A stretch of DNA of 64,000 nucleotides from a virus (lineage: Duplodnaviria > Caudoviricetes). Position numbers and translations under genes: made by a program. Location of the stretch: positions 128,001 through 192,000 of the IMG/VR virus record IMGVR_UViG_3300037780_000034. The stretch is one strand, 5' to 3'. Below are positions 8,812 through 25,479 of this stretch, in pieces. A model generated the notes under the pieces. It did not search any database, had not been told where the DNA came from, and saw nothing but the letters and a program-made list of their open reading frames with translations. Positions within the stretch are counted from its first letter, which is position 1. Each line of letters opens with the position of its first letter.

Positions 8812-8933
8812 TGCATCGTAGCTCAGAGGTAGAGCAGGTGACTGTGGATGCTAAAGGTCATAGGGTCAGTTCGATTCTGACAGCATCAACCGTAATCACT
8901 TGGTCGCAGGTTCGATCCCTGCCGATGCAGCCA
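8812..8933 (+). tRNA. tRNA-Asn(GTT) interrupted by a 47-nt tRNA-like insert (8846-8892)
   Basis: TGCATCG/CGATGCA acceptor, G73, CCA, intact D and T arms; removing the insert gives loop CT-GTT-AA. Confidence 0.8.
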
Positions 8934-9516: not shown

Positions 9517-9646
9517 AGGATCATTTCCGCAATATTTTACTTTGCATCAGAAGCACGTGTTTGCAGGTTCAAGTCCTGCCTCCCCAACCATAATAATTGA
9601 CGGGGAGTAGGCAAATGGTAAAGCCGCGTTAAGTAATATGATCCTG
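9517..9646 (+). ncRNA. cassette 1 carrying a circularly permuted tRNA (CAG, Leu-like)
   Basis: AGGATCAT-TTCCGCAA ... ATGATCCT-G; 3' half 9544-9590 precedes 5' half 9601-9629. Confidence 0.85.
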
Positions 9647-9827
9647 TTATATACTACAGGCTAACTTTTGGGGGTTAGCTTGGTGTTACAGAAGTATAGG
9701 AAATCATTCGGAACCAAATAATGCCTATACCATTTTACGGTTCCAGCAAAACACAGTTGACAACCGATAGAGAATCAGCTACATTACAGACACTGAAAAT
9801 GAAACCACTAACAAAAGGTGAAACACT

Positions 9828-10280
9828 ATGAAGGGCATTGAAGCCAAATATACTGCTAAAGTAATTGCAAAAATGATCAAACATAATCGTTCAATTGAAC
9901 GCAAACATCAGCGTAAAAGTGAACGTGATTTCTTTGATGATGAAAGCTATGTTATTGCAAACTTTACACATAAAGAAGGAAAGAAACTTTCTTCACAATT
10001 TCGTGCATTTATGATCCATAATGCTTTTAAGAAAAATCGTGGATTTACAAGTGCAGAAGTTGCTTATTTTAACCTTGGTGAAAATTCACTGTCTACTATC
10101 AAAGAGAATAAAGAACTATATTCACGATATATGGATAGGTTTAAACGCCAGCAAAAAGCAATTAACATTGTTCGTCATAAACTTCTTGATCATAATGAAC
10201 GTGAAAGTTTTGAAAACTGGCTTAACACAAATGCAATGAATGAAACTTACTTTGACGAAAATTTCCTTCAACCTGCATAA
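9828..10280 (+). CDS. hypothetical protein
   Basis: RBS AAGGTG; promoter just upstream. Confidence 0.7.
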   Translation: MKGIEAKYTAKVIAKMIKHNRSIERKHQRKSERDFFDDESYVIANFTHKEGKKLSSQFRAFMIHNAFKKNRGFTSAEVAYFNLGENSLSTIKENKELYSRYMDRFKRQQKAINIVRHKLLDHNERESFENWLNTNAMNETYFDENFLQPA

Positions 10281-10543
10281 TACTGGTTGACACTGTTGAA
10301 AATCATTGATATAGTGTCAACAACAACAAAACGCTCTTTGACAATTTAACCATCTTCCCTATGCGAAAGCTATGATGGGATAAAAACAGACTTATTGTGT
10401 AAGATGAAGAATCTGTAAATCGCAATTGGTTGTCTGTTTTGAATATGATAGCACCACTTCCGAGTAATCAGATAATAACTGATTATTTCGAGTTAATTAA
10501 TAGTTTGAGCAAACGGATGCTATCATATTCAAAACAGATATAA

Positions 10544-10617
10544 GGCTCTATTGCATTGTGGAATGCAGCGGCTTCTAACCCCGTTTCAAGCAGGTTCGAC
10601 TCCTGTTAGGGCCACCA
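10544..10617 (+). tRNA. probable amber suppressor tRNA (CTA); alternative reading is a distorted Arg(TCT)
   Basis: canonical spacing puts TT-CTA-AC in the loop; C31.C39 mismatch. Confidence 0.65.
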
Positions 10618-10727
10618 AATAAAACCAAATGGAGAGAAAAATGTTCTAGATTTATATACCACCATAACTTCTATTGATTTAAAGTTTAAAGAAAGACCTT
10701 TACTCAAATATCAATAGGAGAAACAAA

Positions 10728-11108
10728 ATGAGTATTCAATTAAAAATTAAAAATAAACATCTTAGTGAAGAAGCACGAATCATACGTTTTGAAGAAAACA
10801 AAATCAAAAAACACGCTCGTAACGTAAGAGAACGTCAAGGGCACCAAACTGCCGATGATATAATGAAAACTTTTCAGTCACTTAGACATCATCGCAGATG
10901 GGACGTTCGTAACGAAAATCGTGCTACTTTTATTGCCAGAGCCTTCATAGAAGGAAAATCATATAAACAAGTTGAAACCAAACGTAATCCAGAGAATGAA
11001 TATACATTTATAGCGTTTGTGTTGCCAAGAGTGTTGACAATGGTAAACAAGTATGGCAATGTCCAGATAACAAAAGAAGAATTACTCAAATGGTGTAATC
11101 AAGAATAA
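10728..11108 (+). CDS. hypothetical basic protein
   Basis: RBS AGGAG. Confidence 0.7.
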   Translation: MSIQLKIKNKHLSEEARIIRFEENKIKKHARNVRERQGHQTADDIMKTFQSLRHHRRWDVRNENRATFIARAFIEGKSYKQVETKRNPENEYTFIAFVLPRVLTMVNKYGNVQITKEELLKWCNQE

Positions 11109-11115
11109 CTAAAAC

Positions 11116-11192
11116 GGAAGCATAGCATAATTGGTTAATGCCCACGTCTCATAAACGTGTTTATCTTGGTTCAAGTCCAAGTGCTTCCACCA
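11116..11192 (+). tRNA. tRNA(CAT), Met or Ile2
   Basis: canonical cloverleaf. Confidence 0.9.
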
Positions 11193-11337
11193 ATATGTTG
11201 AAACTTAATTGTCAGTCTGACGTTTCAATATTAATTAATTAATGACTGGCCAAAGGCTTGATGTGTTAAAAACCTTGTGGTGATGTAATCAAGATAAACC
11301 ACATAAACTCCTTTGTATGAAATGAAATTTCCTCTTT

Positions 11338-11395
11338 AGGATGATTACCGCAAAATTAATAAACTTTTTTTTGGTAAAAGCAGAACATCATCCTG
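11338..11395 (+). ncRNA. cassette 2 with a short hairpin cargo
   Basis: AGGATGAT-TACCGCAA ... ATCATCCT-G. Confidence 0.8.
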
Positions 11396-11407
11396 ATTGT
11401 GTATTGT

Positions 11408-11487
11408 GGGCGAGTGGGCAAATTGGTAAAGTCGGTTCACTCAAAATGAGAGTCATTTTGTCGGTTCGAGTCCGACCTCGCCTACCA
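11408..11487 (+). tRNA. tRNA-Leu(CAA)
   Basis: loop CT-CAA-AA; 8-nt variable region. Confidence 0.9.
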
Positions 11488-11572
11488 ATTTTATCTTATG
11501 AGTTAAGATTTGTTTTAATCATTGAAGTCCCTCTACGGGCACCAACAACTATAAACACTAAAATAGAATAAT

Positions 11573-11647
11573 GCGGACATCGTATAAGGTTATTACGCTT
11601 GGCGACCAGCTAAGAAATACAGGTTAGAATCCTGTTGTCCTGCTCCA
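11573..11647 (+). tRNA. atypical tRNA-Gly (ACC)
   Basis: Gly-type G1-C72, C2-G71, U73; bulged acceptor; loop CG-ACC-AG; T loop TTAGAAT. Confidence 0.65.
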
Positions 11648-11655
11648 AATAACTG

Positions 11656-11684
11656 TTGACACTCACCAGAGAATCAACTATAGT
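11656..11684 (+). promoter_or_regulatory. sigma70-type promoter
   Basis: TTGACA-17-TATAGT. Confidence 0.8.
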
Positions 11685-11708
11685 AACAGTGTAAGAACTA
11701 ATACTTGT

Positions 11709-11785
11709 GGGCCTGTAGCATAATTGGTTAATGCCCAGTGCTCATAACACTGTCAATCGCGGTTCAAGTCCGTGCGGGCCTACCA
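11709..11785 (+). tRNA. tRNA(CAT), Ile2 or Met
   Basis: canonical cloverleaf. Confidence 0.9.
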
Positions 11786-11805
11786 GTATTAGTTTTTGAT
11801 TTTTT

Positions 11806-11864
11806 AGGATGACTTCCGCAAAATTATGCATTTGACCGTTAATCAAAAAAGCAAAATCATCCTG
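11806..11864 (+). ncRNA. cassette 3 carrying an isolated Asn-type anticodon arm
   Basis: AGGATGAC-TTCCGCAA ... TTTGA-CC-GTT-AA-TCAAA ... ATCATCCT-G. Confidence 0.8.
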
Positions 11865-11873
11865 TAATAGAAT

Positions 11874-11967
11874 GGGCGCGTGGCGAAATTGGTTGAAACG
11901 CAAGGCACTTAAAATGCCTCACAGATTAGTGATCACACTGTGGGTTCGAGTCCCACCGCGCCTACCA
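11874..11967 (+). tRNA. tRNA-Leu(TAA)
   Basis: loop CT-TAA-AA; long variable arm. Confidence 0.9.
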
Positions 11968-12026
11968 AAATGTAGTAAACACAAAGAAATTTACTTCTAC
12001 TCATAAATAAGTAGAAGGAGAATTAA

Positions 12027-12467
12027 ATGAGTGATTACTTCAAAAATTATATGAACTTAACAAAAGAAAACAGACAAAGACACTTAGATATATCTTCACC
12101 TTGTGAAGAACGTGGTGGGAATAGCACAATATATAGAGGAGTCCTTGCTCAATATTTAAACACTCCTATCCCGATGGGTAGGATAGCAGTTCTGGCTCAC
12201 GCATGTAACAATAATAAATGTTCTAATCCACAGCATTTATATTGGGCGACAGACAGAGAGAATATAGTAGAAGATGGAAAAAAGTTTGGAACTTTTAAGA
12301 GTGTTTGGGAACGAATGGTAGACAAGCACGGTTATGAAGAAGCTTGTAGGCTACAAGCCAACGGTGCCCAATCAAAGGCAGGACAAGGAAACAAAGGTAA
12401 ACGAAAGTCTGAAGAACATAAGCGCAAAATATCCGAATCTTTAAAAATAAAAAATAGAAAAGAATAA
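12027..12467 (+). CDS. His-Me-finger (HNH-type) homing endonuclease with NUMOD3-like tail
   Basis: HACNNNKCSNPQHL; KRKSEEHKRKISESLK. Confidence 0.8.
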   Translation: MSDYFKNYMNLTKENRQRHLDISSPCEERGGNSTIYRGVLAQYLNTPIPMGRIAVLAHACNNNKCSNPQHLYWATDRENIVEDGKKFGTFKSVWERMVDKHGYEEACRLQANGAQSKAGQGNKGKRKSEEHKRKISESLKIKNRKE

Positions 12468-12538
12468 ATCTTCTAATAATATAAATAATTATAGAAATTT
12501 GCAACCATTATACAACTACCAAAAAGGATTAAAATGTT

Positions 12539-12662
12539 AGGATCATTACCGCAATTTTATTTGCATTTCCAGCCGTAGATGCAGGTGCAATTCCTGCTCA
12601 CCCTACCAATATAAATTATGGGGTGATCGTCTAATAGTAGGACAACGTATAATATGATCCTG
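12539..12662 (+). ncRNA. cassette 4 carrying a circularly permuted tRNA (TTC, Glu-like)
   Basis: AGGATCAT-TACCGCAA ... ATGATCCT-G; 3' half 12563-12608, 5' half 12620-12647. Confidence 0.85.
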
Positions 12663-12697
12663 TTCTTTAAAAAAAAGAAAGTTAATTTAAGTTTTTT

Positions 12698-12816
12698 AGA
12701 TTATGTTCAGCAAACCATATAAATTATATGAAAGCCTATCAACGTTGCCGGAAGGCCCGTATGGCAAACCCAGTTTTCGATTTTCTGGTTCTATAAAAAA
12801 GTAGACACATAATCTG
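12698..12816 (+). ncRNA. cassette 5 with a multi-hairpin cargo
   Basis: AGATTATG-TTCAGCAA ... CATAATCT-G. Confidence 0.8.
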
Positions 12817-12823
12817 TAATAAT

Positions 12824-12900
12824 TGCGGGGTAGACTGGAGAGGTACCCAGCACGGTCTCATAAGCCGATCACGGCGGTTCGAATCCGCCCCCCGCAACCA
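12824..12900 (+). tRNA. initiator-like tRNA-fMet(CAT)
   Basis: TGCGGGG/CCCCGCA-A-CCA; loop CT-CAT-AA. Confidence 0.85.
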
Positions 12901-13164
12901 TTTTTATAAAATGATAATTCCCTTTATTTTTACGAGTTTCCTTTCCGAGTAAAAATATCAAGGTTGAGTTATCATTTTATAAAAATGAGGATATAAATTA
13001 TGGATAAAGAAATACAAGATTTTATAGATTTTTGGAAAGAAAAAGATGTAAAATTACCAAATCCACAAAATTATCCAAAATCTTTTGAATGGTATGTTAC
13101 AATGTGGAAATATCACACAAAATAATATTATAAATACCTATGTAAGTTAACATAGGAGATAATA

Positions 13165-13809
13165 ATGTCATTAATAAGAATTCAACAAATACTAAAAGAT
13201 ATGAACCACGATCCAGGTCCAATTGATGGATTATGGGGAAGCAGAACAAAAGCTGCATTAGAAAGTTTAATACAATGGGAAGGAAAACCAGTAACGGTTA
13301 CTTCCAATTCATCTGATGATGATTTACCTTGGATGATAGAAGGAAAAAAAGTATTTGGGTTTCACGAAGTTAGAAATAATAGTGAATTAAGAAAATGGTT
13401 AAGAAGTGATGGTGCTACTCTTGGTGATCCAAAAGCACTTCCCTGGTGTGGTGATTTTACCGAGACTGCTATAAAAAACTCATTACCAACTGAACCTTTT
13501 ACTGGTAGAATGCTTGAAAATCCATATTGGGCAAGAAATTGGCTTGAATTTGGTCGTGCATCGCCTGCTATATATGGATGCATAGGCGTTTTTAGTAGAG
13601 GCACAGGAGGTCACGTTGGTTTCTTGGTAGGTGAAGATGCAACAGACTATTATGTTTTTGGTGGAAATCAAAGCGATAGTGTTAATATAGTAAGAATAGA
13701 TAAAAAACGTTTACTGGGAACAAGATGGCCATTGACTTACAATATTGTTAATACACCATTACCTAAAAGAGACCCAAAAACTGTAATCAAATCAGTTAAT
13801 GAAATATAA
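13165..13809 (+). CDS. endolysin-like: peptidoglycan-binding domain plus CHAP/NlpC-type domain (TIGR02594-like)
   Basis: PGPIDGLWGSRTKAAL; PWCGDF; GHVGF; GGNQSDSV. Confidence 0.8.
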   Translation: MSLIRIQQILKDMNHDPGPIDGLWGSRTKAALESLIQWEGKPVTVTSNSSDDDLPWMIEGKKVFGFHEVRNNSELRKWLRSDGATLGDPKALPWCGDFTETAIKNSLPTEPFTGRMLENPYWARNWLEFGRASPAIYGCIGVFSRGTGGHVGFLVGEDATDYYVFGGNQSDSVNIVRIDKKRLLGTRWPLTYNIVNTPLPKRDPKTVIKSVNEI

Positions 13810-13818
13810 GGAAAAGTT

Positions 13819-14055
13819 ATGAAAATAGTATTTGCCCAAGGTGCATTTGATGATTTTGATGGAACACAAGAAGAACTTGATAACCTTCTTTCGGAATTAA
13901 AAGAAATGATTGAAAGTGGTTCACTTATGGAAAAAAGTGAACCAGTGGATTTAGACTTATTGCAAGAAGAAAATCCAGAAATATATGAAAAAATTATGAA
14001 GTTTGATAGTTTAGATCAAGATACGTTTGAAAATACTAAAAATAAACTCCATTAA
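13819..14055 (+). CDS. hypothetical acidic protein
   Basis: RBS AAGGA. Confidence 0.65.
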   Translation: MKIVFAQGAFDDFDGTQEELDNLLSELKEMIESGSLMEKSEPVDLDLLQEENPEIYEKIMKFDSLDQDTFENTKNKLH

Positions 14056-14059
14056 TTTT

Positions 14060-14138
14060 GGCCCCATCGTCTACGCTGGTGTTAGGATACTCGGCTTTCA
14101 TCCGAGAGAAGTCGGTTCAATTCCGTCTGGGGCTACCA
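14060..14138 (+). tRNA. tRNA-Glu(TTC)
   Basis: loop CT-TTC-AT; G1-U72, A73. Confidence 0.9.
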
Positions 14139-14145
14139 AAATAAT

Positions 14146-14231
14146 GTGTCGGTGGGTGAGCGGTTTAAACCACCTGACTGTAAATCAGGCGCTGAAAAGC
14201 AACGCTAGTTCGAATCTAGCCCGACACACCA
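14146..14231 (+). tRNA. tRNA-Tyr(GTA)
   Basis: class II cloverleaf. Confidence 0.95.
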
Positions 14232-14273
14232 AATATTATGAGTGCAAAGTTACAAGCACTCAAAACAAATCTT

Positions 14274-14350
14274 GTGCGTGTGTAGCTGAATGGTTAAGCG
14301 CAGGATTGCAAATCCTGATTATGTTGGTTCGAGTCCAATCACGCACTCCA
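14274..14350 (+). tRNA. tRNA-Cys(GCA)
   Basis: GTGCGTG/CACGCAC acceptor, U73; 4-nt instead of 2-nt linker after the acceptor stem. Confidence 0.85.
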
Positions 14351-14389
14351 ATATAGTCTACTCTAATAAATAATAAAAAAGGTAAAAAA

Positions 14390-14560
14390 ATGGAAATATC
14401 TGATAGGATTGAATCTTTAAAAGCAAAACATCGTGAACTTGATAGTAGGATTGAAGTTCTGTATGCTGAAAGAGTAGACGAAAAGTATATAACTTCTCTA
14501 AAAAAAGAAAAGTTAAAGATAAAAGAAGAAATTACTAAGTTACAAAATAGCTTAGTATAA
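14390..14560 (+). CDS. small coiled-coil protein, YdcH/DUF465-like
   Basis: LKAKHRELDSRI...LKKEKLKIKEEI (56 aa, below the ORF-track cutoff). Confidence 0.7.
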   Translation: MEISDRIESLKAKHRELDSRIEVLYAERVDEKYITSLKKEKLKIKEEITKLQNSLV

Positions 14561-14568
14561 AATAATTT

Positions 14569-14653
14569 AGGAATATTTCAGCAAATTTATCTTGGATAAA
14601 ACATTGTTCTCAAAAACAAAGTGAAGTGGTTCAAATCCACATCAATATTCCTG
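14569..14653 (+). ncRNA. cassette 6 enclosing D-, anticodon- and T-like arms without an acceptor end
   Basis: AGGAATAT-TTCAGCAA ... GTGG-TTCAAAT-CCAC ... ATATTCCT-G. Confidence 0.8.
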
Positions 14654-14663
14654 ACTAATATCT

Positions 14664-14774
14664 TGGAACATTACCGCAACTATAACATAAACAATGGGTT
14701 ACAGGTTCAAATCCTGTCTTTTACAGTTTGTAAAAGTAGTTCAATGGTAGAACAATTGTCAAAAAATGTTCCAG
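14664..14774 (+). ncRNA. cassette 7 carrying a permuted tRNA-like RNA with a closed acceptor stem and no CCA
   Basis: TGGAACAT-TACCGCAA ... T arm, CTTTTACA-GTT-TGTAAAAG, D arm ... ATGTTCCA-G. Confidence 0.85.
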
Positions 14775-14782
14775 TATTTTAT

Positions 14783-14856
14783 GGGGGATTAGTTCAATGG
14801 TAGAACAGGTGCTTTACGCGCATCATACAGCAGTTCGATTCTGTTATCCCCTACCA
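14783..14856 (+). tRNA. tRNA-Val(TAC)
   Basis: loop TT-TAC-GC; CCA. Confidence 0.9.
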
Positions 14857-14871
14857 ATATTAGGAAAAAAT

Positions 14872-15309
14872 ATGAATAATAAATGGGATTTAAGATTTTT
14901 AGAATTAGCAAAACATATTGCAGAATGGTCAAAAGACCCAAGCACAAAAGTTGGGTGTGTAATAGTAAGACCAGATAAAACTATTGCGTCTGTTGGTTAC
15001 AATGGATTTCCACGTGGTGTTAATGATGAACCAGAAAGATATAATAATCGTGAGATAAAATATCTTATGGTAAAACACGCAGAAGAGAATGCAGTATACA
15101 GTTCAAAAGAATCATTGACTGGATATACGGCGTATGTTACACACTATCCGTGTTCTAGTTGCACAGGAACACTAATACAAAATGGAATAAAAAGAATTGT
15201 AACACAAAAACCAGATGATAGTTTTGCTTCAAGGTTTCGTGATAGTTTTGAATCATCAAAAATAATGATTAATGAAACTGGTATAGAATTAGTTTTAATA
15301 GAAGATTAA
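14872..15309 (+). CDS. dCMP deaminase
   Basis: SKDPSTKVGC, HAEENA, PCSSC. Confidence 0.9.
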   Translation: MNNKWDLRFLELAKHIAEWSKDPSTKVGCVIVRPDKTIASVGYNGFPRGVNDEPERYNNREIKYLMVKHAEENAVYSSKESLTGYTAYVTHYPCSSCTGTLIQNGIKRIVTQKPDDSFASRFRDSFESSKIMINETGIELVLIED

Positions 15310-15311
15310 AT

Positions 15312-15396
15312 GGGCTAGTGTTGAAATAGGTAGACAATGCGCACTTAGAATGCGTTGCCGAAAGGCGTGGGGGTTCAAGTCCCTCCTAGCCTACCA
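15312..15396 (+). tRNA. tRNA-Leu(TAG)
   Basis: class II cloverleaf. Confidence 0.95.
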
Positions 15397-15414
15397 TTAT
15401 TGAAAGGATACAAA

Positions 15415-15588
15415 ATGAAAAACAAAATAAAAACACCTAAACCACGAAATGAATATGCAATTTCTGCAAGGTTTAGAACAGGTGCTGGTCCTATGCAAAA
15501 ATCTAAGAAAGCACAGAGACAACAAGATAAAATTGCTTTAAAGAAAAAAGGTAAAGACTACTTTAACAATAGAGAAACTATTCTTTAA
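15415..15588 (+). CDS. small basic hypothetical protein
   Basis: RBS AAGGA; KPRNEYA..GAGPM. Confidence 0.6.
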   Translation: MKNKIKTPKPRNEYAISARFRTGAGPMQKSKKAQRQQDKIALKKKGKDYFNNRETIL

Positions 15589-15735
15589 GTAGTCTTGTTT
15601 TATAATATATGAAAGGATATAATATGTTTACATTAATAGTAGGAATAGTAATTGGTGCTTTCATTGGTTGGAATTTTCCACAACCAGAGTTTGCTAGAAA
15701 TATTCAAAATAAGATAAAAAATATTCTAAAATAAT

Positions 15736-16509
15736 GCCACGGTAGCTCAGTCCGGTAGAGCATACAGGTTTGTAAAATAGTAAATATCTAAAAAGGATAT
15801 TTACTATGATTAGAAATAAAATAGAATGTAAAAAATGTGAAAGATTGATAAGTTTATCAAATCATAAAAGACATACACAATCCTGTAATGGCAAAAAAGT
15901 ATCTTCAAACAAAACTATTGAAGAAAATCATATTGATTGGAAAACAATACAAGAAGATTATGACAATGGATTAACATACCGTGGAATAACAGAAAAATAC
16001 AAAATATGTCAACAATCAATATCAAATGCGAGAAAAAAAGGTCTGTTAAAAACACGTTCTAAATCAGAAGCCTCTAAACTTTATTATAAAAATAATACAC
16101 CAAACATAATGAGCGATGAGGCCAGAAAAAGAATTTCTGAAAAAATGTCCGAACATAATCACGGCGGAAGAAGTAAATGGTTTGAGATAGATGGGAAGAA
16201 AGTCCAAGGAACTTGGGAGCTTAACTTTGCCAAATTTTGCAAAGAGAACAACATAGAATGGCAAAGATGCAAACCTTGGAAATATAAAATGGATAAAAAA
16301 ATAAGAAGCTATACACCAGACTTTTATATTCCAAGCAAAAAATTATTTATAGAAATAAAAGGTCATTGGTGGGGAGATGATAGAAGAAAAATGAACTGTG
16401 TAATAGAACAACATCCTGATAAAAACATTCTTATAATAGAAAAAGAGATATACGAACAGATGCTAGATGGAAAATTAGAATGGTGATTCGAATTCACATC
16501 GTGGCACCA
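15736..16509 (+). pseudogene. tRNA-Thr(TGT) split by an endonuclease gene (pieces 15736-15775 and 16482-16509)
   Basis: GCCACGG pairs with TCGTGGC-A-CCA about 700 nt downstream; positions 39-48 are missing. Confidence 0.75.
15806..16486 (+). CDS. PD-(D/E)XK-type putative homing endonuclease
   Basis: YTPDFYI...FIEIKG; N-terminal Zn finger and HTH-like segment. Confidence 0.75.
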   Translation: MIRNKIECKKCERLISLSNHKRHTQSCNGKKVSSNKTIEENHIDWKTIQEDYDNGLTYRGITEKYKICQQSISNARKKGLLKTRSKSEASKLYYKNNTPNIMSDEARKRISEKMSEHNHGGRSKWFEIDGKKVQGTWELNFAKFCKENNIEWQRCKPWKYKMDKKIRSYTPDFYIPSKKLFIEIKGHWWGDDRRKMNCVIEQHPDKNILIIEKEIYEQMLDGKLEW

Positions 16510-16615
16510 TAGTTTTATGATACACTGTCCGCAACAGGTCTTGATGGGGTAGCTTACGAGCAAGCCAAAGTGTAGGTGTAAGTCCTACCGCAGTGTATCA
16601 TAAAAATATAAATAT

Positions 16616-16692
16616 TGTTCTGTAGCACAATTGGTTTAGTGCAGGCGACTGATAATCGTCAGATTCAAGTTCAAATCTTGACAGAACAACCA
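16616..16692 (+). tRNA. tRNA-Ile(GAT)
   Basis: loop CT-GAT-AA. Confidence 0.9.
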
Positions 16693-16701
16693 ACAAATTT
16701 A

Positions 16702-16777
16702 TGGTAGAAGGGAAATTGGCGACCGACCGCACTTTGAATGCGTGTTATTGTAAGTTCGAATCTTACTCTACCAACCA
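16702..16777 (+). tRNA. tRNA-Gln(TTG)
   Basis: U1-A72; loop CT-TTG-AA; weak D arm. Confidence 0.8.
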
Positions 16778-16799
16778 ATATAAAGTAAAAATGAAATAC

Positions 16800-16884
16800 G
16801 GACAAGTGCCCGAGAGGACAAAGGGAACTGACTTTTAATCAGTCGCTATATGCTACGTGGGTTCGAATCCCACCTTGTTCACCA
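16800..16884 (+). tRNA. tRNA-Lys(TTT) with a class II body
   Basis: loop CT-TTT-AA; 13-nt variable region; 3-bp D stem. Confidence 0.85.
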
Positions 16885-16962
16885 AAATATGGTCGAATCA
16901 GATTGACATATACAGTCAACTATGCTATTGTATAGTATATTCAATGAAAGAAAGATATTACT

Positions 16963-17409
16963 ATGAAAATTGAATACCGTCAAGGCGATCTATTTAAAAC
17001 AGAGATTAAAACAATTGTTCACGGATGCAATGCGCAAGGTGTTATGGGGTCTGGGGTTGCGAATATAATTCGTGAACAATATCCAGAAGCATATGAGCGT
17101 TATCGTAATGAGTATGAAAAACATAATTATCTAAAGCTTGGTGATATCATATCAGTTCCTTGTAATTACAAGTTTATTGTAAACGCTATTACACAAGAGT
17201 ATTTTGGGCGTGACAATAAACGATATGTTAGCTATGATGCAGTAGATGACGTTATGGTAAAGTTAAATAAATTTTACGATATATACGGTATTTCAGAAAT
17301 TGCTATGCCAAAAATTGGTGCTGGTTTAGGAAATGGTTCTTGGGAAGTGATAGAAGCAATCATAGAGAATCGTCTTGACACCGTGAAACCAGTAGTGTAT
17401 ACTATGTGA
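16963..17409 (+). CDS. macro domain (ADP-ribose binding/hydrolase) protein
   Basis: GDLF, IVHGCNAQGVMGSGVA, MPKIGAGLGNG. Confidence 0.9.
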   Translation: MKIEYRQGDLFKTEIKTIVHGCNAQGVMGSGVANIIREQYPEAYERYRNEYEKHNYLKLGDIISVPCNYKFIVNAITQEYFGRDNKRYVSYDAVDDVMVKLNKFYDIYGISEIAMPKIGAGLGNGSWEVIEAIIENRLDTVKPVVYTM

Positions 17410-17420
17410 TATGAAATAAT

Positions 17421-17497
17421 CTCCACGTAGCTCAACTGGACAGAGCGAGTGACTTCTAATCACTAGGTTGAGGGTTCGATTCCTTCCGTGGAGGCCA
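17421..17497 (+). tRNA. tRNA-Arg(TCT)
   Basis: canonical cloverleaf. Confidence 0.95.
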
Positions 17498-17561
17498 TTT
17501 CTTATACTACCTTATACCCTACTAACAGGTATAAATACCTATGAACTAGGAGAATACTATA

Positions 17562-17957
17562 ATGAGCATTTCAAACCAAAAAGGTGATATAGGGGAAGCA
17601 CATTTTGTTTTAAGGGCTACTGAAAAGGGATATTGGACTGGAAAAATGCCACAAGACTGCCCTTATGATTTTGTATTGGATAGAGGAAAAGGATTAGAGC
17701 GTGTTCAGGTAAAATACAGGTCTAGTGCAAAAAAAGGTTCAATACAAATTAATTCCTTTAATTCAAGTCCGCAATCAAATAGAACATATAACGGTTTCGT
17801 TGATCAATTTGCAGTATATAACCCAGAAACATCAGAAGTATATCTTATTCCAGCTAATTTAGTAATGGAATCTGGTGCTTCTATTTTTAGAGTAGAATAT
17901 CCTAAAAATAATCAACTAAAAGGTGTAACTTTTCTTTCTGAATTCAAAGAATGGTAG
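17562..17957 (+). CDS. PD-(D/E)XK endonuclease (group I intron-associated type)
   Basis: KGDIGE, YDFVLD, RVQVKY. Confidence 0.8.
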   Translation: MSISNQKGDIGEAHFVLRATEKGYWTGKMPQDCPYDFVLDRGKGLERVQVKYRSSAKKGSIQINSFNSSPQSNRTYNGFVDQFAVYNPETSEVYLIPANLVMESGASIFRVEYPKNNQLKGVTFLSEFKEW

Positions 17958-18096
17958 TTCGAATCTTACTTGCAGCACCAATAAAAATATTGTATTGAAC
18001 CCCACTATTCATATGCTGAGTGTTTTAGACCTGACACTGTGAAGCGAATATGCGTTCAATACCTGCTAGGGGAATTGGTCCCTCCTAGTCAGTTTT

Positions 18097-18170
18097 GGCC
18101 CCTTGGTATATGGATATTACGCTCGGCTGTCTACCGGGAAAAACGGGTTTGAGTCCCGTAGGGGTCGCCA
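18097..18170 (+). tRNA. tRNA-Asp(GTC)
   Basis: loop CT-GTC-TA; G73. Confidence 0.9.
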
Positions 18171-18577
18171 ATATAGACTGTGACGTAATCGGCCCTTGTG
18201 AGGAACGCTCCCGTAACCAGTCGGGTTAAAGTTGCAAACAACCCAGTCTATAAAATAAAGTCCTATGTCCGACTTACCGATTTTGGTATTTTGGCTTAGG
18301 CACCAGTTTGATCTAGATACTTTTATTTTTGGAGCAAGAGTAGTCGTGTGTGATGATAAAAATGAAAGTCGTTTCAATGCTAGACAACATTCGGTTCAAG
18401 GACGTGCGAACCAGTATTATGACACCTGCACGTTGACCCTGAAACCAGTGTGCAGCATTATACGATGGGTAACAGTCTGGAGAGTGACAGACATATATGC
18501 GAAAAGGGTTTTTAGTAGTATGTGGTAATTCTTAAACCCTGAAATATCCATTAAGATCGTCGGTAGGCCACATATTT

Positions 18578-18652
18578 GGGGGATTGGTGAAATCAGGATC
18601 ACGTAGGTGTTGCATACCTAAATTATCGGGGCAGGTCCGATATCCTCCACCA
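18578..18652 (+). tRNA. tRNA-Ala(TGC) with a non-canonical T loop
   Basis: G3.U70, A73; loop GT-TGC-AT; T loop GGCAGGT. Confidence 0.8.
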
Positions 18653-18812
18653 TATAAATAAAGGATATGTTATGATTGGTTTAATATTTTTATCATTTAG
18701 TCCATTGTTTTTGATAGCATCAAATGACTATTTTGGTAAAATTTCTTCTATAATTTGTGCTGTTATTGGCATAACCATAATAACTATATCTCTGTTAATG
18801 TAAGGAATAAAA

Positions 18813-19142
18813 ATGTCATATGAAAAACCACTTCCTAAACCATTATATCCGCCAGTTGACCAAGGTTCACTAAAAGCTTTTGAATATTACAAAGAATTTA
18901 TAGAATATCTTGGAGCAAAGCCGGTAAATCATACTGAAATAGAAAATGGTGATACCACAAGTTTAGAACATTTGTTATGGATGTGTAATCATTGTATACC
19001 AAGAATTCGTGATGATGGATTAGGATTTAATGTTTCTAAGTATTCACGATGGTTAGGATACATACAAGGTTGTTTAATTTGTAAAGGTTACACAAGTGTA
19101 GCACAAGAAAGAGACAGAACAAGAAACTTTTTTAATGAATAA
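18813..19142 (+). CDS. hypothetical protein
   Basis: RBS AAGGA. Confidence 0.65.
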   Translation: MSYEKPLPKPLYPPVDQGSLKAFEYYKEFIEYLGAKPVNHTEIENGDTTSLEHLLWMCNHCIPRIRDDGLGFNVSKYSRWLGYIQGCLICKGYTSVAQERDRTRNFFNE

Positions 19143-19148
19143 TCTTTT

Positions 19149-19368
19149 TGGATCAGTTCAGCAAACAATATTTCCGTGAAAAGGACCGTGACGGTGGTGC
19201 AAATCCGCCCTTCCCCGCCACAGATACACTATGACAACATAGACGGGTTAATCGCCGTAGGAACGAAGCAGTTTCCAAACCAACGATAGGAAGAGTTTGT
19301 CGTCTTCTGTAGTGTATCTTTGACGGGGAAGTAGCTCAGTTAGTAGAGCAGGTAAAAAGTTGATCCAG
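19149..19368 (+). ncRNA. cassette 8 carrying a circularly permuted tRNA-Phe(GAA)
   Basis: TGGATCAG-TTCAGCAA ... TTGATCCA-G; 3' half 19174-19220, 5' half 19325-19353. Confidence 0.85.
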
Positions 19369-23568: not shown

Positions 23569-25479
23569 ATGTTAATATCTGAAATGATAACCCTATTGGA
23601 AGCAACAAAATACGATTCTATGTTTGATGTTATTACTGGCAATAAATTAAAAACAATTCCAGATAATGTAAAACAATCGTTTAAAGATGCTATAGATACT
23701 CAGATAAATTGGGCTAGAAAATATTTAAAAAAAGAAGATAGAATTATATGGTTTTTACGAGTCTGTAAAATTCATTATTTGGAAGTAATGTTAGGAAGAT
23801 TTCCATCTGATGAAAATATGAAAAATATCAGCAATGAAAGTGACAGATTAAAATTAACAAATGAAAAAAATATCATAATAAAAGAAATAAATAAAACTTC
23901 AAACAAAGCGGGTGGATTGCAGGCAGTTAGAGATATAGGCACTGTTAGAAGAAATTTAATACATTATATTGGACAAGATCAAATTACCAGTATTCAAAAT
24001 TATGTTTTTAAAAATGAGCATCCAAACGAATTATATCAAAAATTTGAAGAATTTGAAGAAGAATGGAAAGAAAAAGTAGGAAGGGATAGTGTTACCATCA
24101 AAGAAGGTGACAAACTTATACTGGGATTTGATGGAGGCACAAAAGGATGGTGGTTGTTAGACCGTGGTGCATGTCGTGAAGAAGGTGATGCAATGGGTCA
24201 TTGCGGTAATGTTCCAAGTATCAAATCTGGTGATAGAATACTTAGCTTTAGAACCCAAATAGAAGGAAAATATTGGAAACCTCATTTAACTTTTATATTA
24301 CACGGTGATGGAACGCTTGGCGAAATGAAGGGTAGAAATAATGATAAACCTAATGAAAAATATCATCCTTATATAATAGAACTATTAAAACAATCTGATT
24401 TAATCAAAGGTATAAAAGGTGGCGGATATCGCCCAGAAAATAATTTTAGTTTAAGTGATTTGGATAAATCTGATCAAGATGATTTAATTGAAATAAATTC
24501 AAACTTAATGAATGTTTTTCAAAGATATAGAAAAAATGGATTTTCAAAAGAAATATTAGCAGAAATAAAAGATAAAAATTATGAATCAAGTTTGCCAAGT
24601 GTTGAAAGTTTTGATTATCCAACAGTTACATTAGAAGAGTGGTCCAATTTAGAAGAATTTGCAAGAAATTTTGATAATGAAGTTTTAAATTCATTAATGG
24701 CAAAAATTGATATAGAAGAAGAATTGGAAAATGATAGATTAGATGATGATGAACTACAAGAAATTGCAGATGAAATCAAAGTAGATTCAAACGATTATTA
24801 TGATATATTAGAACGATTACCACAACAAATACTTCAAACTATGGCAAATGATTTAAATCTTAATGTAGATGTTACCAATTTTAAAGGAATAGATTCTTTA
24901 TCTGAAAATATTGACAAATCAAAATATGGAGACATAATAAGACGTGCCATTGTAAAAACAAAAAACCTAAATAGTCAGCCTATTAAAGATGATCCTCAAA
25001 CAGTTGAATTTATTAATTTTTTTATGAATTCTGTAATATTAAGATCAAGTAAAATTTATAGTGCATATTTAGAATACGATGAAAATAATATTTTTGAAAC
25101 AACATTTTCTTATAAGATTAGTTTTGATGATTTTGTTAATATATTAGAAGAATCTTTTAGTAGTGGTGATGCTACCGAAGATGAAGAAGCTTTTTATATG
25201 GCACAAGATGCAATCAATGAAGGACAATGGTTATCCGTTGATAGTTATGATATATATCAAACATTAAAAAATTTAAAAAAACAAAATAGTCAATTTTCTG
25301 ATTATGACGAAGATGACAGAGAGTTGTATAATTCGTTTATAAAAAGAATAAACACTACAAACGTTGATTTATCTAATTTAAATCCAATAGAAGTTGCACG
25401 AGAAGTAGTAAGAATGATAAATTTTAATGAAAATGCAGAATTAAAAAGATTAAACATTTTAGCAGGTATTAAAAAATGA
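23569..25479 (+). CDS. large late protein with a PcfJ-like central domain (paralog A)
   Basis: CREEGDAMGHCGN...GEMKGRNNDKP. Confidence 0.75.
   Translation: MLISEMITLLEATKYDSMFDVITGNKLKTIPDNVKQSFKDAIDTQINWARKYLKKEDRIIWFLRVCKIHYLEVMLGRFPSDENMKNISNESDRLKLTNEKNIIIKEINKTSNKAGGLQAVRDIGTVRRNLIHYIGQDQITSIQNYVFKNEHPNELYQKFEEFEEEWKEKVGRDSVTIKEGDKLILGFDGGTKGWWLLDRGACREEGDAMGHCGNVPSIKSGDRILSFRTQIEGKYWKPHLTFILHGDGTLGEMKGRNNDKPNEKYHPYIIELLKQSDLIKGIKGGGYRPENNFSLSDLDKSDQDDLIEINSNLMNVFQRYRKNGFSKEILAEIKDKNYESSLPSVESFDYPTVTLEEWSNLEEFARNFDNEVLNSLMAKIDIEEELENDRLDDDELQEIADEIKVDSNDYYDILERLPQQILQTMANDLNLNVDVTNFKGIDSLSENIDKSKYGDIIRRAIVKTKNLNSQPIKDDPQTVEFINFFMNSVILRSSKIYSAYLEYDENNIFETTFSYKISFDDFVNILEESFSSGDATEDEEAFYMAQDAINEGQWLSVDSYDIYQTLKNLKKQNSQFSDYDEDDRELYNSFIKRINTTNVDLSNLNPIEVAREVVRMINFNENAELKRLNILAGIKK

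Follow-up and report, generated by a model that had tools for sequence, protein, structure and literature searches.

The window analysed here is a stretch of 64,000 nt (positions 128,001 to 192,000 of IMG/VR record IMGVR_UViG_3300037780_000034) from a jumbo phage. It carries eight short RNA cassettes, all on the + strand, several of them directly followed by tRNA genes (Table 1). A sequence-only reading had described eight copies of one layout, in which an 8-bp stem is followed directly by the motif TWCMGCAA and the copy ends in the complement of its own stem plus a G. We retrieved all eight at the positions given there and with this layout. All eight pairs are Watson-Crick in six cassettes, and the eighth pair is C.A in cassette 3 and G.U in cassette 8. 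A strict scan of the whole 317,722-bp record returned 10 hits, the eight cassettes and two weak 7/8 hits on the opposite strand; 100 shuffles gave 1.53 hits on average and never more than 5. The window's eight are the only clean cassettes in this 318 kb record.

Table 1. Cassettes of the window (positions are those of the window; the last column gives the tRNA gene past the cassette end and its distance).
Cassette	Position	Strand	Length (nt)	Stem	Motif	Cargo	Following tRNA
1	9517..9646	+	130	AGGAUCA(U)/(A)UGAUCCU; terminal G 9646	UUCCGCAA (9525-9532)	Permuted Leu(CAG)-like tRNA: nt 30-76 with CCA 9544-9590, 10-nt spacer, nt 1-29 9601-9629	
2	11338..11395	+	58 (small class)	AGGAUGA	UACCGCAA	Single hairpin CUUUU-UUUUGGU-AAAAG	tRNA-Leu(CAA), 12 nt
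3	11806..11864	+	59 (small class)	AGGAUGA	UUCCGCAA	Hairpin UUUGA-CCGUUAA-UCAAA; Asn GUU-type loop, C33; has U36-A-A-U-C-A41	tRNA-Leu(UAA), 9 nt
4	12539..12662	+	124	AGGAUCA	UACCGCAA	Permuted Glu(UUC)-like tRNA: nt 30-76 with CCA 12563-12608, spacer, nt 1-29 12620-12647	
5	12698..12816	+	119	AGAUUAU	UUCAGCAA	Several hairpins, one T-arm-like (CCAG..UUCGAUU..CUGG)	tRNA-Met, 7 nt
6	14569..14653	+	85	AGGAAUA	UUCAGCAA	Two hairpins and T arm (GUGG-UUCAAAU-CCAC), normal tRNA order	
7	14664..14774	+	111	UGGAACA	UACCGCAA	YrlA-like loop-less tRNA body: T arm, acceptor stem with 3-nt closing loop, D arm; without CCA	tRNA-Val, 8 nt
8	19149..19368	+	220	UGGAUCA	UUCAGCAA	Permuted tRNA-Phe(GAA): nt 30-76 with G73-CCA 19174-19220, 104-nt spacer, nt 1-29 19325-19353	

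The cargo is tRNA-derived, as had been proposed: cassettes 1, 4 and 8 contain permuted tRNAs whose break lies within the anticodon stem, 7 contains a loop-less tRNA body, 2 and 3 have one anticodon-arm-like hairpin each, and 5 and 6 have T-arm-like hairpins. The linkers of cassette 1 pair too (UUACUU/AAGUAA), the spacer of cassette 8 contains its own long hairpin, and in cassette 7 a 5-bp equivalent of the anticodon stem (AUUGU/ACAAU) opens into the module, not into a loop. The cargo of cassette 3 is homologous to that of a cassette in another phage (L025). Covariance model R1 scores cassette 1 at 26.9 bits (E 5e-4) and cassette 6 at 26 bits (E 9e-4); cassette 2 reaches 54 bits, but is a seed member of that model. 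The sequence-only reading did not recognise a named RNA family, and the cassettes indeed match none in Rfam. The YrlA model (RF02553, gathering score 69) gives only 31.5 bits over its full length on cassette 7, where the tRNA-like core aligns and the basal module does not, and 21.4 bits on cassette 1.

We collected 293 distinct cassette copies from other phages. The family is unannotated in the cultured phages of Shigella, Campylobacter, Listeria, Staphylococcus, Bacillus and Mycobacterium that we examined. Downstream of 207 5' signatures, the 5-nt closing sequence and a G were present in 197 cases. Both free stem positions are Watson-Crick in 189 of these 197 candidates, with 15 of the 16 dinucleotides in use, against a random expectation of 37.5 ± 4.6 (maximum 51). 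Homologues do carry compensatory stem changes, and this covariation is decisive for the proposal that stems differ while pairing is kept. The stem itself was correctly recognised, its length was not: the eighth pair is not conserved among 171 family members (G.A is commonest), so the conserved stem has 7 bp and is followed by an unpaired G. This layout resembles a tRNA acceptor stem within a tRNA gene slot. For stem pairs 6 and 7 the MI is 1.8-1.9 bit; at positions 8, 10 and 12, in the motif, it is <= 0.16 bit with the strand opposite, which amounts to no covariation. The motif, N-UNCNGCAA, is unpaired, belongs to the 5' strand and precedes A-rich linkers. Distant lineages share its CAGCAA core but each lineage has its own first five stem pairs, a pattern implying sequence-specific recognition.

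The cassettes occupy a precise place in tRNA arrays. They lie on one strand in 189 cases against 3 in 62 loci, in 86 against 2 in 76 of 80 protein-selected loci, and in 39 against 0 in 59 loci of a genome collection; 855 of 856 array tRNAs share the cassette strand. A cassette starts 5-6 nt past the CCA of a tRNA, and the next tRNA begins 8-9 nt past its end. The base at -1 is U in 128 of 189 cassettes and A in 57, and the 3' G is followed by UUG, UUA or UUU; CCA is encoded by 760 of the 856 tRNAs. Across the family, the cargo is either an anticodon-arm mimic (in most cases of Thr, Lys or Asn), a loop-less tRNA body or a complete permuted tRNA. A hairpin of 5 bp with a 7-nt loop occurs in 82 of 99 small cassettes and in 35% of shuffled cores. 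These 82 hairpins, chosen by a picker that slightly favoured U33 and a purine at position 37 when breaking ties, have C32 in 47 cases, U33 in 69, A37 in 64 and A38 in 62. Their commonest 'anticodons' are UGU (13), UUU (12), CUU (10) and GUU (6), a Thr/Lys/Asn bias that may result in part from the AU-richness of the hairpins. The arms do not copy tRNAs of the phages themselves but belong to conserved AU-rich types, and orthologous types recur at equivalent array positions in different phages. The top 'anticodons' agree with the published targets of PARIS AriB (Lys UUU, Thr UGU and Asn GUU; PMC12409363) and of P2-OLD (Thr UGU; PMC12445682).

Clustering of ORFs revealed, apart from homing endonucleases, one top cluster, a protein with DUF2828 and DUF7788. 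Its gene is present in 36 of 50 cassette-bearing records, in all six that are at least 90% complete and in all 29 at 17% or more, and in none of 27 unrelated viral records. In 13 of 13 mapped loci with the gene, one to three cassettes immediately precede it, even without a tRNA array nearby. Conversely, when loci were selected by the protein, 49 of 71 (56 under a relaxed rule) had a cassette within 600 nt of the gene. The linkage is kept down to 28-35% protein identity and holds in six cultured phages of distinct lineages. Co-occurrence at the level of records could be inflated by the shared ancestry of the phages, but the abutting gene order across distant lineages argues against ancestry as its cause. 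The 13 PDB structures that best match the predicted fold of the protein (pLDDT 83, pTM 0.83) are all Ro60/TROVE structures (E 2e-8 to 2e-5, TM mostly 0.5-0.62), with those of Thermus phage phiLo (9KOP, 9L5Y) among the top ones, and the next matches have E > 4e-3. The DxSGSM MIDAS motif is invariant; the Pfam TROVE model does not match the protein.

In the phage studied here, eight of the nine copies are about 50 kb away from the protein gene. The ninth, degenerate and 'empty', is outside the window (G000 85154-85190), with a TTGACA-17-TAATAT promoter on one side and the RBS of the Ro60-like gene on the other, and forms the mRNA leader of that gene. The gene lies about 1 kb downstream of the end of the Rnl1-type ligase ORFs, in a neighbourhood of tRNA and RNA-repair genes; the annotation of Listeria phage LP-124 has an RtcB-like ligase some 1.3 kb downstream of the Ro60-like gene. 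In the Felixounavirus Bas63, loss of a Ro60-like gene located directly upstream of tRNA genes impaired growth on hosts with the Ppl defence, and its authors guessed that some of the 'tRNAs' there are Y RNAs (PMC11482910). From Felixounavirus matches, we infer that this protein, gp130, belongs to the DUF2828 family.

These results make it probable that the cassettes encode Y-like non-coding RNAs of a class not described before, whose partner would be the divergent Ro60-like DUF2828+DUF7788 ring protein. Pieces of tRNA on a constant handle, always encoded beside a Ro60-like protein, most likely represent a novel type of Y RNA that phages deploy in conflicts over tRNA. As genomic partners of such a protein, we place them within the Y RNA paradigm and not in a kind of their own. 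Since the motif differs, YrlA scores stay below threshold and Pfam TROVE finds no match, membership would rest on fold and synteny, not on sequence homology.

The constant handle comprises the 7-bp terminal stem with the grammar of an acceptor stem (U at -1, an unpaired 3' G, UU(G/A) in place of CCA), and may serve as a protein-binding site, like the 5'-strand motif that classical Y RNAs offer to Ro60. On it sits a variable tRNA or tRNA piece, most commonly a hairpin of 5 bp under an anticodon-type loop of 7 nt, in some cases a loop-less body in the YrlA fashion; cassettes 1, 4 and 8 carry an entire permuted tRNA, CCA included, whose chain ends pass from the anticodon stem at 28/29-29/30 into the handle. 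Each RNA is probably transcribed as part of the tRNA array and released from the transcript in the way a tRNA is. The RNP would present tRNA mimics to tRNA-recognising enzymes, as a decoy or tether against host tRNA-targeting defences, as a platform for phage RNA-repair ligases, or as both. Given the cargo identity, the gene neighbourhood and the one published knockout, display of tRNA mimics is the likeliest function, with the decoy role as our leading guess. The idea of a scaffold presenting anticodon loops, put forward in the sequence-only reading, fits the bare anticodon arms among the cargo.

Cassettes 1, 4 and 8, together with L248 and L136 from other phages, could instead be true circularly permuted tRNA genes yielding working tRNAs (Leu CAG, Glu UUC and Phe GAA in the window). 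The handle would be a paired leader and trailer, cut at 28/29-29/30, and phage Rnl1 or Rnl2 would seal the nick. A 5/5 Watson-Crick anticodon stem is rebuilt in all three only at that break: CGU|GC..GCACG in cassette 1 requires nt 27-29 from the downstream half, ACG|GC..GCCGU in cassette 4 the 29/30 break, and cassette 8 gives GGU|CC..GGACC. The cargo encodes CCA before the spacer, and L248 is a proper tRNA-Asp (GUC, G73, CCA) broken as in cassette 4. In the 318 kb record ARAGORN detects no tRNA-Phe of the ordinary kind, which leaves the cargo of cassette 8 as the only Phe(GAA). The genome encodes Rnl2-type and Rnl1-type ligases, and T4 Rnl1 and Rnl2 can repair a single 28|29 nick of a tRNA anticodon stem seamlessly (PMC12445682), which also counts for permuted genes. 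We nevertheless consider this account unlikely. Most family members (bare hairpins, loop-less bodies, non-tRNA cargo) cannot become tRNAs; neither tRNA_int_endo nor RtcB was found in the genome for the two cuts, and reading the junctions revealed no bulge-helix-bulge. The anticodon loops are atypical: position 32 is A or G in all three, and position 37 is C in cassette 4 and L136. Relatives differ in where the break lies (28/29, 29/30, 31/39 and, seemingly, the variable region), which a fixed splice site would explain less well than a handle grafted onto a mimic. Nor does a CCA-tailed acceptor end require a tRNA, as the RNase P-cleaved, CCA-tailed YrlA of M. smegmatis is not one (PMC4201824). 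A Ro60-like RNP could also be a maturation platform for permuted tRNAs, which is compatible with the Y-like reading.

It is improbable that the cassettes merely process or punctuate the array transcript without a dedicated protein partner, their acceptor-stem mimics recruiting RNase P and a 3' endonuclease or stabilising the transcript. The tRNA slots and spacing, the U at -1, the 7-bp stem and the unpaired 3' G followed by U would suit such a role, but not the CAGCAA core conserved above lineage-specific stem pairs, the cassettes adjoining the Ro60-like gene without any array, or the empty copy in the leader of that gene. The suggestion in the sequence-only reading of a small self-cleaving or self-ligating module that excises or circularises the cargo found no support, in contrast to its structured scaffold with a co-varying closing stem, a fixed motif and tRNA-derived cargo. 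The stem would bring two ends together, permuted tRNAs would need joining and phage RNA ligases are encoded, but the conserved core is just the 8 unpaired nt of the motif, with neither a second conserved strand nor covariation supporting a tertiary core, no ribozyme family matched even at permissive thresholds, and DNA contigs, the material at hand, yielded neither circular nor joined forms; we give it very little credence. Scarcely credible at all are miniature mobile DNA elements spreading through tRNA arrays, as the 7-8 bp terminal inverted repeats, multiple copies, variable interior and similar A/T-rich flanks are countered by the strict polarity relative to genes (189 against 3), a motif on one arm only, compensatory changes that preserve pairing within copies and not a common repeat, the lack of a consistent target-site duplication and the orthologous types at equivalent positions.

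The closest known systems include the YrlA-type Y RNAs of bacteria and phages with Ro60/Rsr (RF02553; Chen et al. 2014, PMC4201824). They too are encoded on the same strand beside a gene for a Ro60-fold protein and linked to RNA ligase genes, their ends pair as a terminal stem next to a short conserved 5'-strand motif, and their second module imitates a tRNA whose T arm, acceptor and D arm follow in permuted order, which cassette 7 does too; an RNase P-type acceptor end with CCA, as on the YrlA of M. smegmatis, is present in some cassettes. However, the known Ro60-binding motifs of Y RNAs are GGUCCGA and, in YrlA, GNCGAAN0-1G, whereas the cassettes carry UNCNGCAA after a 7-bp acceptor-like stem, and the Rfam YrlA model had no match at E <= 0.01 in four cultured-phage loci. 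The cassette partner is a DUF2828+DUF7788 protein that the Pfam TROVE model does not recognise. Cassettes also occur in high copy (nine in this genome), interleaved with tRNA genes, and most carry only an anticodon-arm mimic, some a whole tRNA including that arm. Phage phiLo likewise encodes a Ro60-fold protein with two small RNAs just upstream, Yrl1 and Yrl2, each with a terminal stem and a bulge motif, whose binding was demonstrated by EMSA and cryo-EM (PMC12135203). Its protein is a canonical TROVE protein and its motif CGAA, and neither anticodon-arm or permuted-tRNA cargo nor embedding in a tRNA array was reported.

The permuted tRNA genes of Cyanidioschyzon merolae and the split tRNAs of archaea (PMC4090602, PMC3400036) share the 3' half upstream of the 5' half, a CCA encoded or added, an intervening linker, leader-trailer pairing and a maturation that would need two cuts and one ligation. 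There, a splicing endonuclease cuts a bulge-helix-bulge; here neither this motif nor the enzyme was found, and the cassettes break inside the anticodon stem and have paired flanks with a conserved protein-type motif that also enclose cargo unable to be a tRNA. We found no report of permuted tRNAs in bacteriophages in the literature searched. Anticodon-arm RNA mimics on a putative protein-binding handle were not previously described either. Known countermeasures against PARIS AriB, P2-OLD and PrrC (PMC11464382, PMC12409363, PMC12445682) differ in being full-length nuclease-resistant replacement tRNAs or repair enzymes, but they share the genomic setting of phage tRNA arrays and the Lys UUU, Thr UGU and Asn GUU identities, and the cassette arms retain the U36-A37-A38-U39 context read by AriB.

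A strict scan of the whole genome (8 nt followed by TWCMGCAA, then the complement plus G within 400 nt) recovered all eight + strand RNA cassettes (window 9517-19368) exactly where the sequence-only reading had placed them, together with two weak matches on the opposite strand (shuffled sequences: mean 1.53, maximum 5). The record is a jumbo phage of 317,722 bp, about 85% complete, whose DNA runs point to pond and freshwater metagenomes as source habitats. The four best runs gave DNA contigs only, and the few joints among these were short-sided or from other organisms. The tRNA array spans 8.8-22.5 kb of the window, lies entirely on the + strand, and holds 22 tRNAs by ARAGORN and 24 by Rfam. 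A megablast of the 10 kb region against GenBank phages returned no match. Six of the eight closing stems are Watson-Crick over all eight pairs, and those of cassettes 3 and 8 differ at pair 8 only. Other features of the array region, among them interrupted and irregular tRNA genes, are collected in the table.

The cassettes are a real, widespread RNA family. The two-strand pattern on the commonest stem gave 61 exact matches in viral contigs, where chance would produce almost none. Under the general cassette rule (seven Watson-Crick pairs, N, TNCNGCAA, then the complement plus G), 62 loci covering 550 kb yielded 189 cassettes on the array strand against 3 on the opposite one. Among the 189, 163 were unique, and unique copies reached 293 once all loci were added. 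We then used a covariation test that does not presuppose pairing, in which 5' signatures were scored for the five conserved closing bases plus G downstream. These were found for 197 of 207 signatures, and the two free stem positions were both complementary in 189 of the 197, with 15 of the 16 dinucleotides in use; random pairing predicts 37.5 ± 4.6. Homologues with compensatory stem changes, which the proposal of a co-varying family implied, are thus abundant. The 8-bp stem of that proposal holds as regards pairing and not as regards length: the eighth pair is unconserved in the family, so the conserved stem is 7 bp long.

The constant part of each cassette, which we call the handle, consists of this terminal stem and an unpaired motif on its 5' strand. 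The variable positions of the motif do not covary with the facing A-rich strand, and the motif is therefore a sequence-specific, non-helical element. It reads UNCNGCAA in strict-rule copies, with variants NACAGCAA, GCAU and GCAC elsewhere. The first five stem pairs vary by lineage (AGGAU, AGACC, UGGAC, AAGAC), while a C-N-G-C-A-A core and the 3' G are constant across lineages. Two early leads were set aside. A first scan of the collection with the 16-mer AGGATSATTWCCGCAA gave mostly chance matches, and a recurrent 226-nt "family" (L003, L004, L007 and other loci) was discarded because it lies within a protein-coding gene and shows third-position variation.

The cargo, i.e. the variable insert, is mostly tRNA-derived in the window, as originally described: cassettes 1-8 include permuted tRNAs, a tRNA body, and anticodon-type and T-arm-like hairpins. 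Cassettes 2 and 3 each carry a single hairpin of 5 bp with a 7-nt loop, cassettes 5 and 6 carry hairpins of T-arm-like type, and cassette 7 carries a tRNA body whose acceptor stem is closed and which lacks an anticodon loop. Across phages, small cassettes mimic anticodon arms. The 5-bp/7-nt hairpin occurs in 82 of 99 small cassettes, compared with 35% of shuffled cores, and these 82 hairpins have C32 in 47 cases, U33 in 69, A37 in 64 and A38 in 62, as found by a picker slightly biased toward U33 and a purine at 37. Their leading "anticodons" are UGU, UUU, CUU and GUU. With 23% GC, compared with 59% for array tRNAs, these arms are AU-rich, and they are not copied from the phages' own tRNAs; conserved types, for example UUCAA-CUUGUAA-UUGAA, recur across phages. 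A tRNA-like body (T arm, acceptor stem-loop, D arm) is present in about 30 of 100 large cassettes and absent from most small ones. Two loci (L216 and L219) have, just downstream of the gene of the partner protein described below, a variant handle AGGAAUAA-C/U-UGCAGCAA followed by a long, conserved, structured and GC-richer stretch, which may be a large-cargo cassette outside the general rule.

Cassettes occupy their arrays much as tRNAs do. Nearly all tRNAs of the 62 loci (855/856) are on the cassette strand, and they commonly encode CCA (760/856) and have U at position -1 (651/856). A cassette starts 5-6 nt past a CCA, with U or A at -1, and its last base, 8-9 nt ahead of the next tRNA, is an unpaired G with UUG, UUA or UUU after it. 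By this slot grammar the closing stem and its G resemble an acceptor stem that has a G73 discriminator and lacks CCA, a likeness from which we infer that the tRNA machinery may process the cassettes. The stem is not copied from a particular array tRNA, since none in the 62 loci starts with AGGAU. Nor did other readings of the flanks and stems hold: the A/T-rich 3' flank has a spacing to the tRNA 5' end that is unsuitable for a promoter, and AGGAUG is unconserved among stems, which speaks against reading it as a Shine-Dalgarno sequence or as part of a short peptide.

We clustered all ORFs of the cassette loci. Homing endonucleases apart, the top cluster is a protein of about 470 aa with DUF2828 and DUF7788 domains. 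A search of whole records found it in 36 of 50 cassette-bearing records, including all 6 that are at least 90% complete and all 29 that are at least 17% complete; the misses are fragments. None of 27 unrelated viral records has it. Every mapped locus that holds the gene has 1-3 same-strand cassettes immediately upstream, even with no tRNA array nearby. The association also holds in reverse. We picked 80 loci via the protein alone, and in the 76 scanned for strand the gene strand has 86 cassettes and the opposite one 2. Where at least 600 nt were available on both sides and the gene was placed by tblastn coordinates (71 loci), a cassette lies within 600 nt of the gene in 49 (56 under a relaxed rule), mostly 7-50 nt past the stop codon. 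The genome collection gave 39 cassettes on the gene strand and 0 opposite, down to 28-35% protein identity.

Sequence profiles said little about this protein. Pfam TROVE (PF05731) had no match in the 318 kb record, and a profile search of PDB sequences gave weak TROVE matches only (E = 0.11), so a fold comparison was needed. The predicted model (pLDDT 83, pTM 0.83) has Ro60/TROVE structures as its 13 best PDB fold matches (E 2e-8 to 2e-5, most TM 0.5-0.62), among them Xenopus Ro with Y RNA, human Ro60, Deinococcus Rsr and the Ro60 of Thermus phage phiLo; the next matches are far weaker. The DxSGSM MIDAS motif is invariant in the family. On the predicted structure, the partner protein is Ro60-like, with a helical-repeat ring and a vWA domain bearing the MIDAS motif.

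The protein is common in cultured phages. It is encoded in at least 710 GenBank phage records and more than 560 viral contigs, and its carriers include Felixounaviruses and Campylobacter, Listeria, Staphylococcus, Bacillus and Mycobacterium phages, groups used in therapy and teaching. Its GenBank labels include "hypothetical", "DUF2828", "RNA-binding protein" and, for mycobacteriophages, "Ro-like RNA binding protein". Unannotated cassettes adjoin the gene in the six cultured phages of the table, and our covariance model, R1, recovers most cultured-phage cassettes at E 1e-4 to 0.06.

In the genome of the window, an Rnl1-type RNA ligase split between two overlapping ORFs ends about 1 kb upstream of the Ro60-like gene. 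A TilS-like enzyme, an HD protein and a 2H/Acb1 phosphoesterase are also nearby, and an Rnl2-type ligase is encoded elsewhere; neither RtcB nor an archaeal splicing endonuclease (tRNA_int_endo) was found in this genome. Directly upstream of the Ro60-like gene is an empty cassette, UGAAUGA-U-AACAGCAA-12 nt-A-UCAUUCU-G, recovered by R1 at E = 0.024. This copy has a TTGACA-17-TAATAT promoter before it and the RBS after it, and forms the mRNA leader of the gene. A bare handle in this position suggests that the Ro60-like protein regulates its own expression.

Coordinates and details of individual features (G000, the whole 317,722-bp record; L183, a collected locus)
Feature	Position	Details
Ro60-like gene	G000 85209-86636	
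Split Rnl1-type ligase	G000 83092-84232 (L183:5093-6233), outside the window	Nucleotidyltransferase domain, then weak T4_Rnl1_C match; split could be frameshift, programmed shift or assembly error
Cassette 1, rebuilt anticodon stem		CGU GC..GCACG (break after CGU); loop AUCAGAA
Cassette 4, rebuilt anticodon stem		ACG GC..GCCGU (break after ACG); loop AUUUCCA
Cassette 8, rebuilt anticodon stem		GGU CC..GGACC (break after GGU); loop GUGAAAA
Shigella phage Sf13		Unannotated cassettes adjoin gene
Mycobacterium phage GuuelaD		Unannotated cassettes adjoin gene
Campylobacter phage F357		Unannotated cassettes adjoin gene
Listeria phage LP-124		Unannotated cassettes adjoin gene; RtcB-like ligase about 1.3 kb downstream of gene
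Staphylococcus phage S-CoN_Ph7		Unannotated cassettes adjoin gene
Bacillus phage PK-3		Unannotated cassettes adjoin gene
Rfam tRNA call	window 8812-8930	54.5 bits; 119 nt, hence an insert of about 47 nt
ARAGORN tRNA	window 10544-10617	CUA anticodon, amber-suppressor type; may point to stop-codon recoding or suppression
dCMP deaminase gene	window 14872-15309	Within tRNA array
Interrupted tRNA gene	window 15744-16510	226-aa ORF (15806-16486), Phage_endo_I-like domain; normal 5' half (acceptor, D arm) before ORF; T arm, acceptor 3' strand and CCA overlap ORF end; group I ribozyme core would not fit
Macro-domain protein gene	window 16963-17409	Within tRNA array
PD-(D/E)XK endonuclease ORF with tRNA 3' fragment after it	window 17562-17982	ORF: PDDEXK_5, E 5.5e-19
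tRNA 3' fragment	window ~17957-17982	Directly after PD-(D/E)XK ORF; T arm, acceptor strand, CCA; no obvious 5' half seen upstream
Stretch before tRNA-Ala-like gene	window 18171-18577	ORF-poor, GC-richer
Putative irregular tRNA-Ala(UGC)	window 18578-18652	Seen by eye, missed by ARAGORN and Rfam; acceptor GGGGGAU/AUCCUCC with ACCA; anticodon arm UAGGU-GUUGCAU-ACCUA
Exact copy of 16-mer TGGAACATTACCGCAA (cassette 7 5' stem + motif)	window 24201-24216, - strand	In + strand ORF 23569-25479 (636 aa, no clear Pfam family); no closing strand nearby; 16-nt identity unlikely by chance in 318 kb; could be antisense target or remnant

Three of the window cassettes (1, 4 and 8) carry circularly permuted tRNAs, in the order T arm, acceptor 3' strand plus CCA, spacer, acceptor 5' strand and D arm. 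ARAGORN was uninformative on in-silico joins, because far too many combinations of cut points passed, and we replaced it with an explicit stem-pairing test, with loop and 3' strand held fixed, to locate the break. The anticodon stem is Watson-Crick at 5/5 pairs only if the downstream half contributes nt 27-29 and the upstream part nt 30-31, which puts the break inside this stem. These cassettes may mature into translating tRNAs: the rebuilt stems are perfect and CCA is encoded, L248 holds a homolog that is a proper tRNA-Asp, and Phe(GAA) is found solely as cassette cargo. However, a search for a candidate nuclease in the genome found none, the anticodon loops are atypical, the break points vary, and most members of the family cannot be tRNA.

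The cargo also resembles the targets of tRNA-cleaving host defences. Its leading identities are Thr UGU, Lys UUU/CUU and Asn GUU, with the U36-A-A-U39 context kept, in agreement with the targets and the recognition site published for PARIS AriB (PMC12409363). Part of this anticodon spectrum could come from the AU bias of the hairpins. The preferred target of P2-OLD agrees as well, and this nuclease cuts the anticodon stem at 28/29 and 40/41 (PMC12445682); the break in the permuted tRNAs falls at roughly the same point. In the Felixounavirus Bas63, a Ro60-like protein encoded just upstream of tRNA genes counters the Ppl defence (2024 preprint, PMC11482910). Given this match of targets, the ligase neighbours and the Bas63 phenotype, our best guess is that the cassettes act against tRNA-targeting defences, as decoys, as tethers or in repair. 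A more ambitious reading, which we consider rather unlikely, is that the Ro60-like protein and its cassettes form a programmable RNA-decoy and repair particle that also matures cassettes 1, 4 and 8 via Rnl ligases. In such a particle, the handle would load tRNA mimics (Thr/Lys/Asn anticodon arms, tRNA bodies, whole tRNAs) onto the ring, where they would trap or misdirect ATPase-nuclease defences of the host that cleave tRNA (PARIS, OLD, possibly Ppl). With the help of the phage Rnl ligases, the particle would convert the permuted precursors into working tRNAs. If true, bacteria and phages would have their first protein-dependent pathway for cutting and joining tRNA.

For phage Ro60-like proteins, at least one of which counters a host defence (PMC11482910), the family supplies candidate RNA partners whose exact positions are given in tractable model phages. 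Annotation is also corrected, as phage "tRNA arrays" include many non-tRNA genes. Among Y-like RNAs, two kinds of cargo are new: anticodon-arm mimics alone on a protein handle, and complete permuted tRNAs. If the decoy or repair reading is true, Ro60 biology is tied to conflicts over tRNA cleavage. The family may also serve engineering as a natural scaffold for the display of RNA modules.

How do the cassettes compare with known systems? Like permuted tRNA genes of the Cyanidioschyzon type, cassettes 1, 4 and 8 and those of L248 and L136 have the 3' half upstream and a cloverleaf once joined. In contrast to that type, the junction reads as a three-way junction without 3-nt bulges rather than a bulge-helix-bulge, and the genome has no tRNA_int_endo to act as splicing endonuclease. 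A miniature inverted-repeat mobile element is contradicted by the strict strand polarity, by stems that differ between copies with compensatory changes, and by flanks with no consistent target-site duplication. Box C/D, kink-turn, retron msr/msd, integron attC and IS200/605-like ends were rejected on reading, with no motif match.

The nearest counterparts are Y RNAs, which are established beside Ro60 genes both in bacteria and in 22 phages whose proteins are annotated as TROVE, with GNCGAAN0-1G as their marker (PMC4201824). Two Y-like RNAs precede the Ro60 gene of Thermus phage phiLo (PMC12135203). For TROVE proteins of jumbo phages, a role as RNA-repair platforms with tRNA-like partners has been suggested (PMC7824862), and the authors of the Bas63 study guessed, without identifying them, that some "tRNAs" might be Y RNAs (PMC11482910). 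We found no description in the literature of the UNCNGCAA handle, of anticodon-arm cargo or of permuted tRNAs in phages. The cassettes belong to no named Rfam family, as first suspected: YrlA (RF02553) scores 31.5 bits (14673-14778) and 21.4 bits (9555-9633) in the window, against a gathering score of 69, and has no match at E <= 0.01 in Sf13, GuuelaD, F357 and Ci1. The better of the two scores comes from the tRNA-like core of cassette 7, which has the YrlA order of T arm, acceptor stem-loop and D arm, an order absent from most small cassettes. Near the 5' end, where YrlA has GNCGAAN0-1G, the cassettes instead have UNCNGCAA. They share with Y RNAs a same-strand gene adjoining that of a Ro60-fold protein and a terminal stem formed by pairing of the 5' and 3' ends. 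They presumably also bind the protein, and the family is best filed within the Ro60-Y RNA system, as members with unusual, tRNA-derived cargo.
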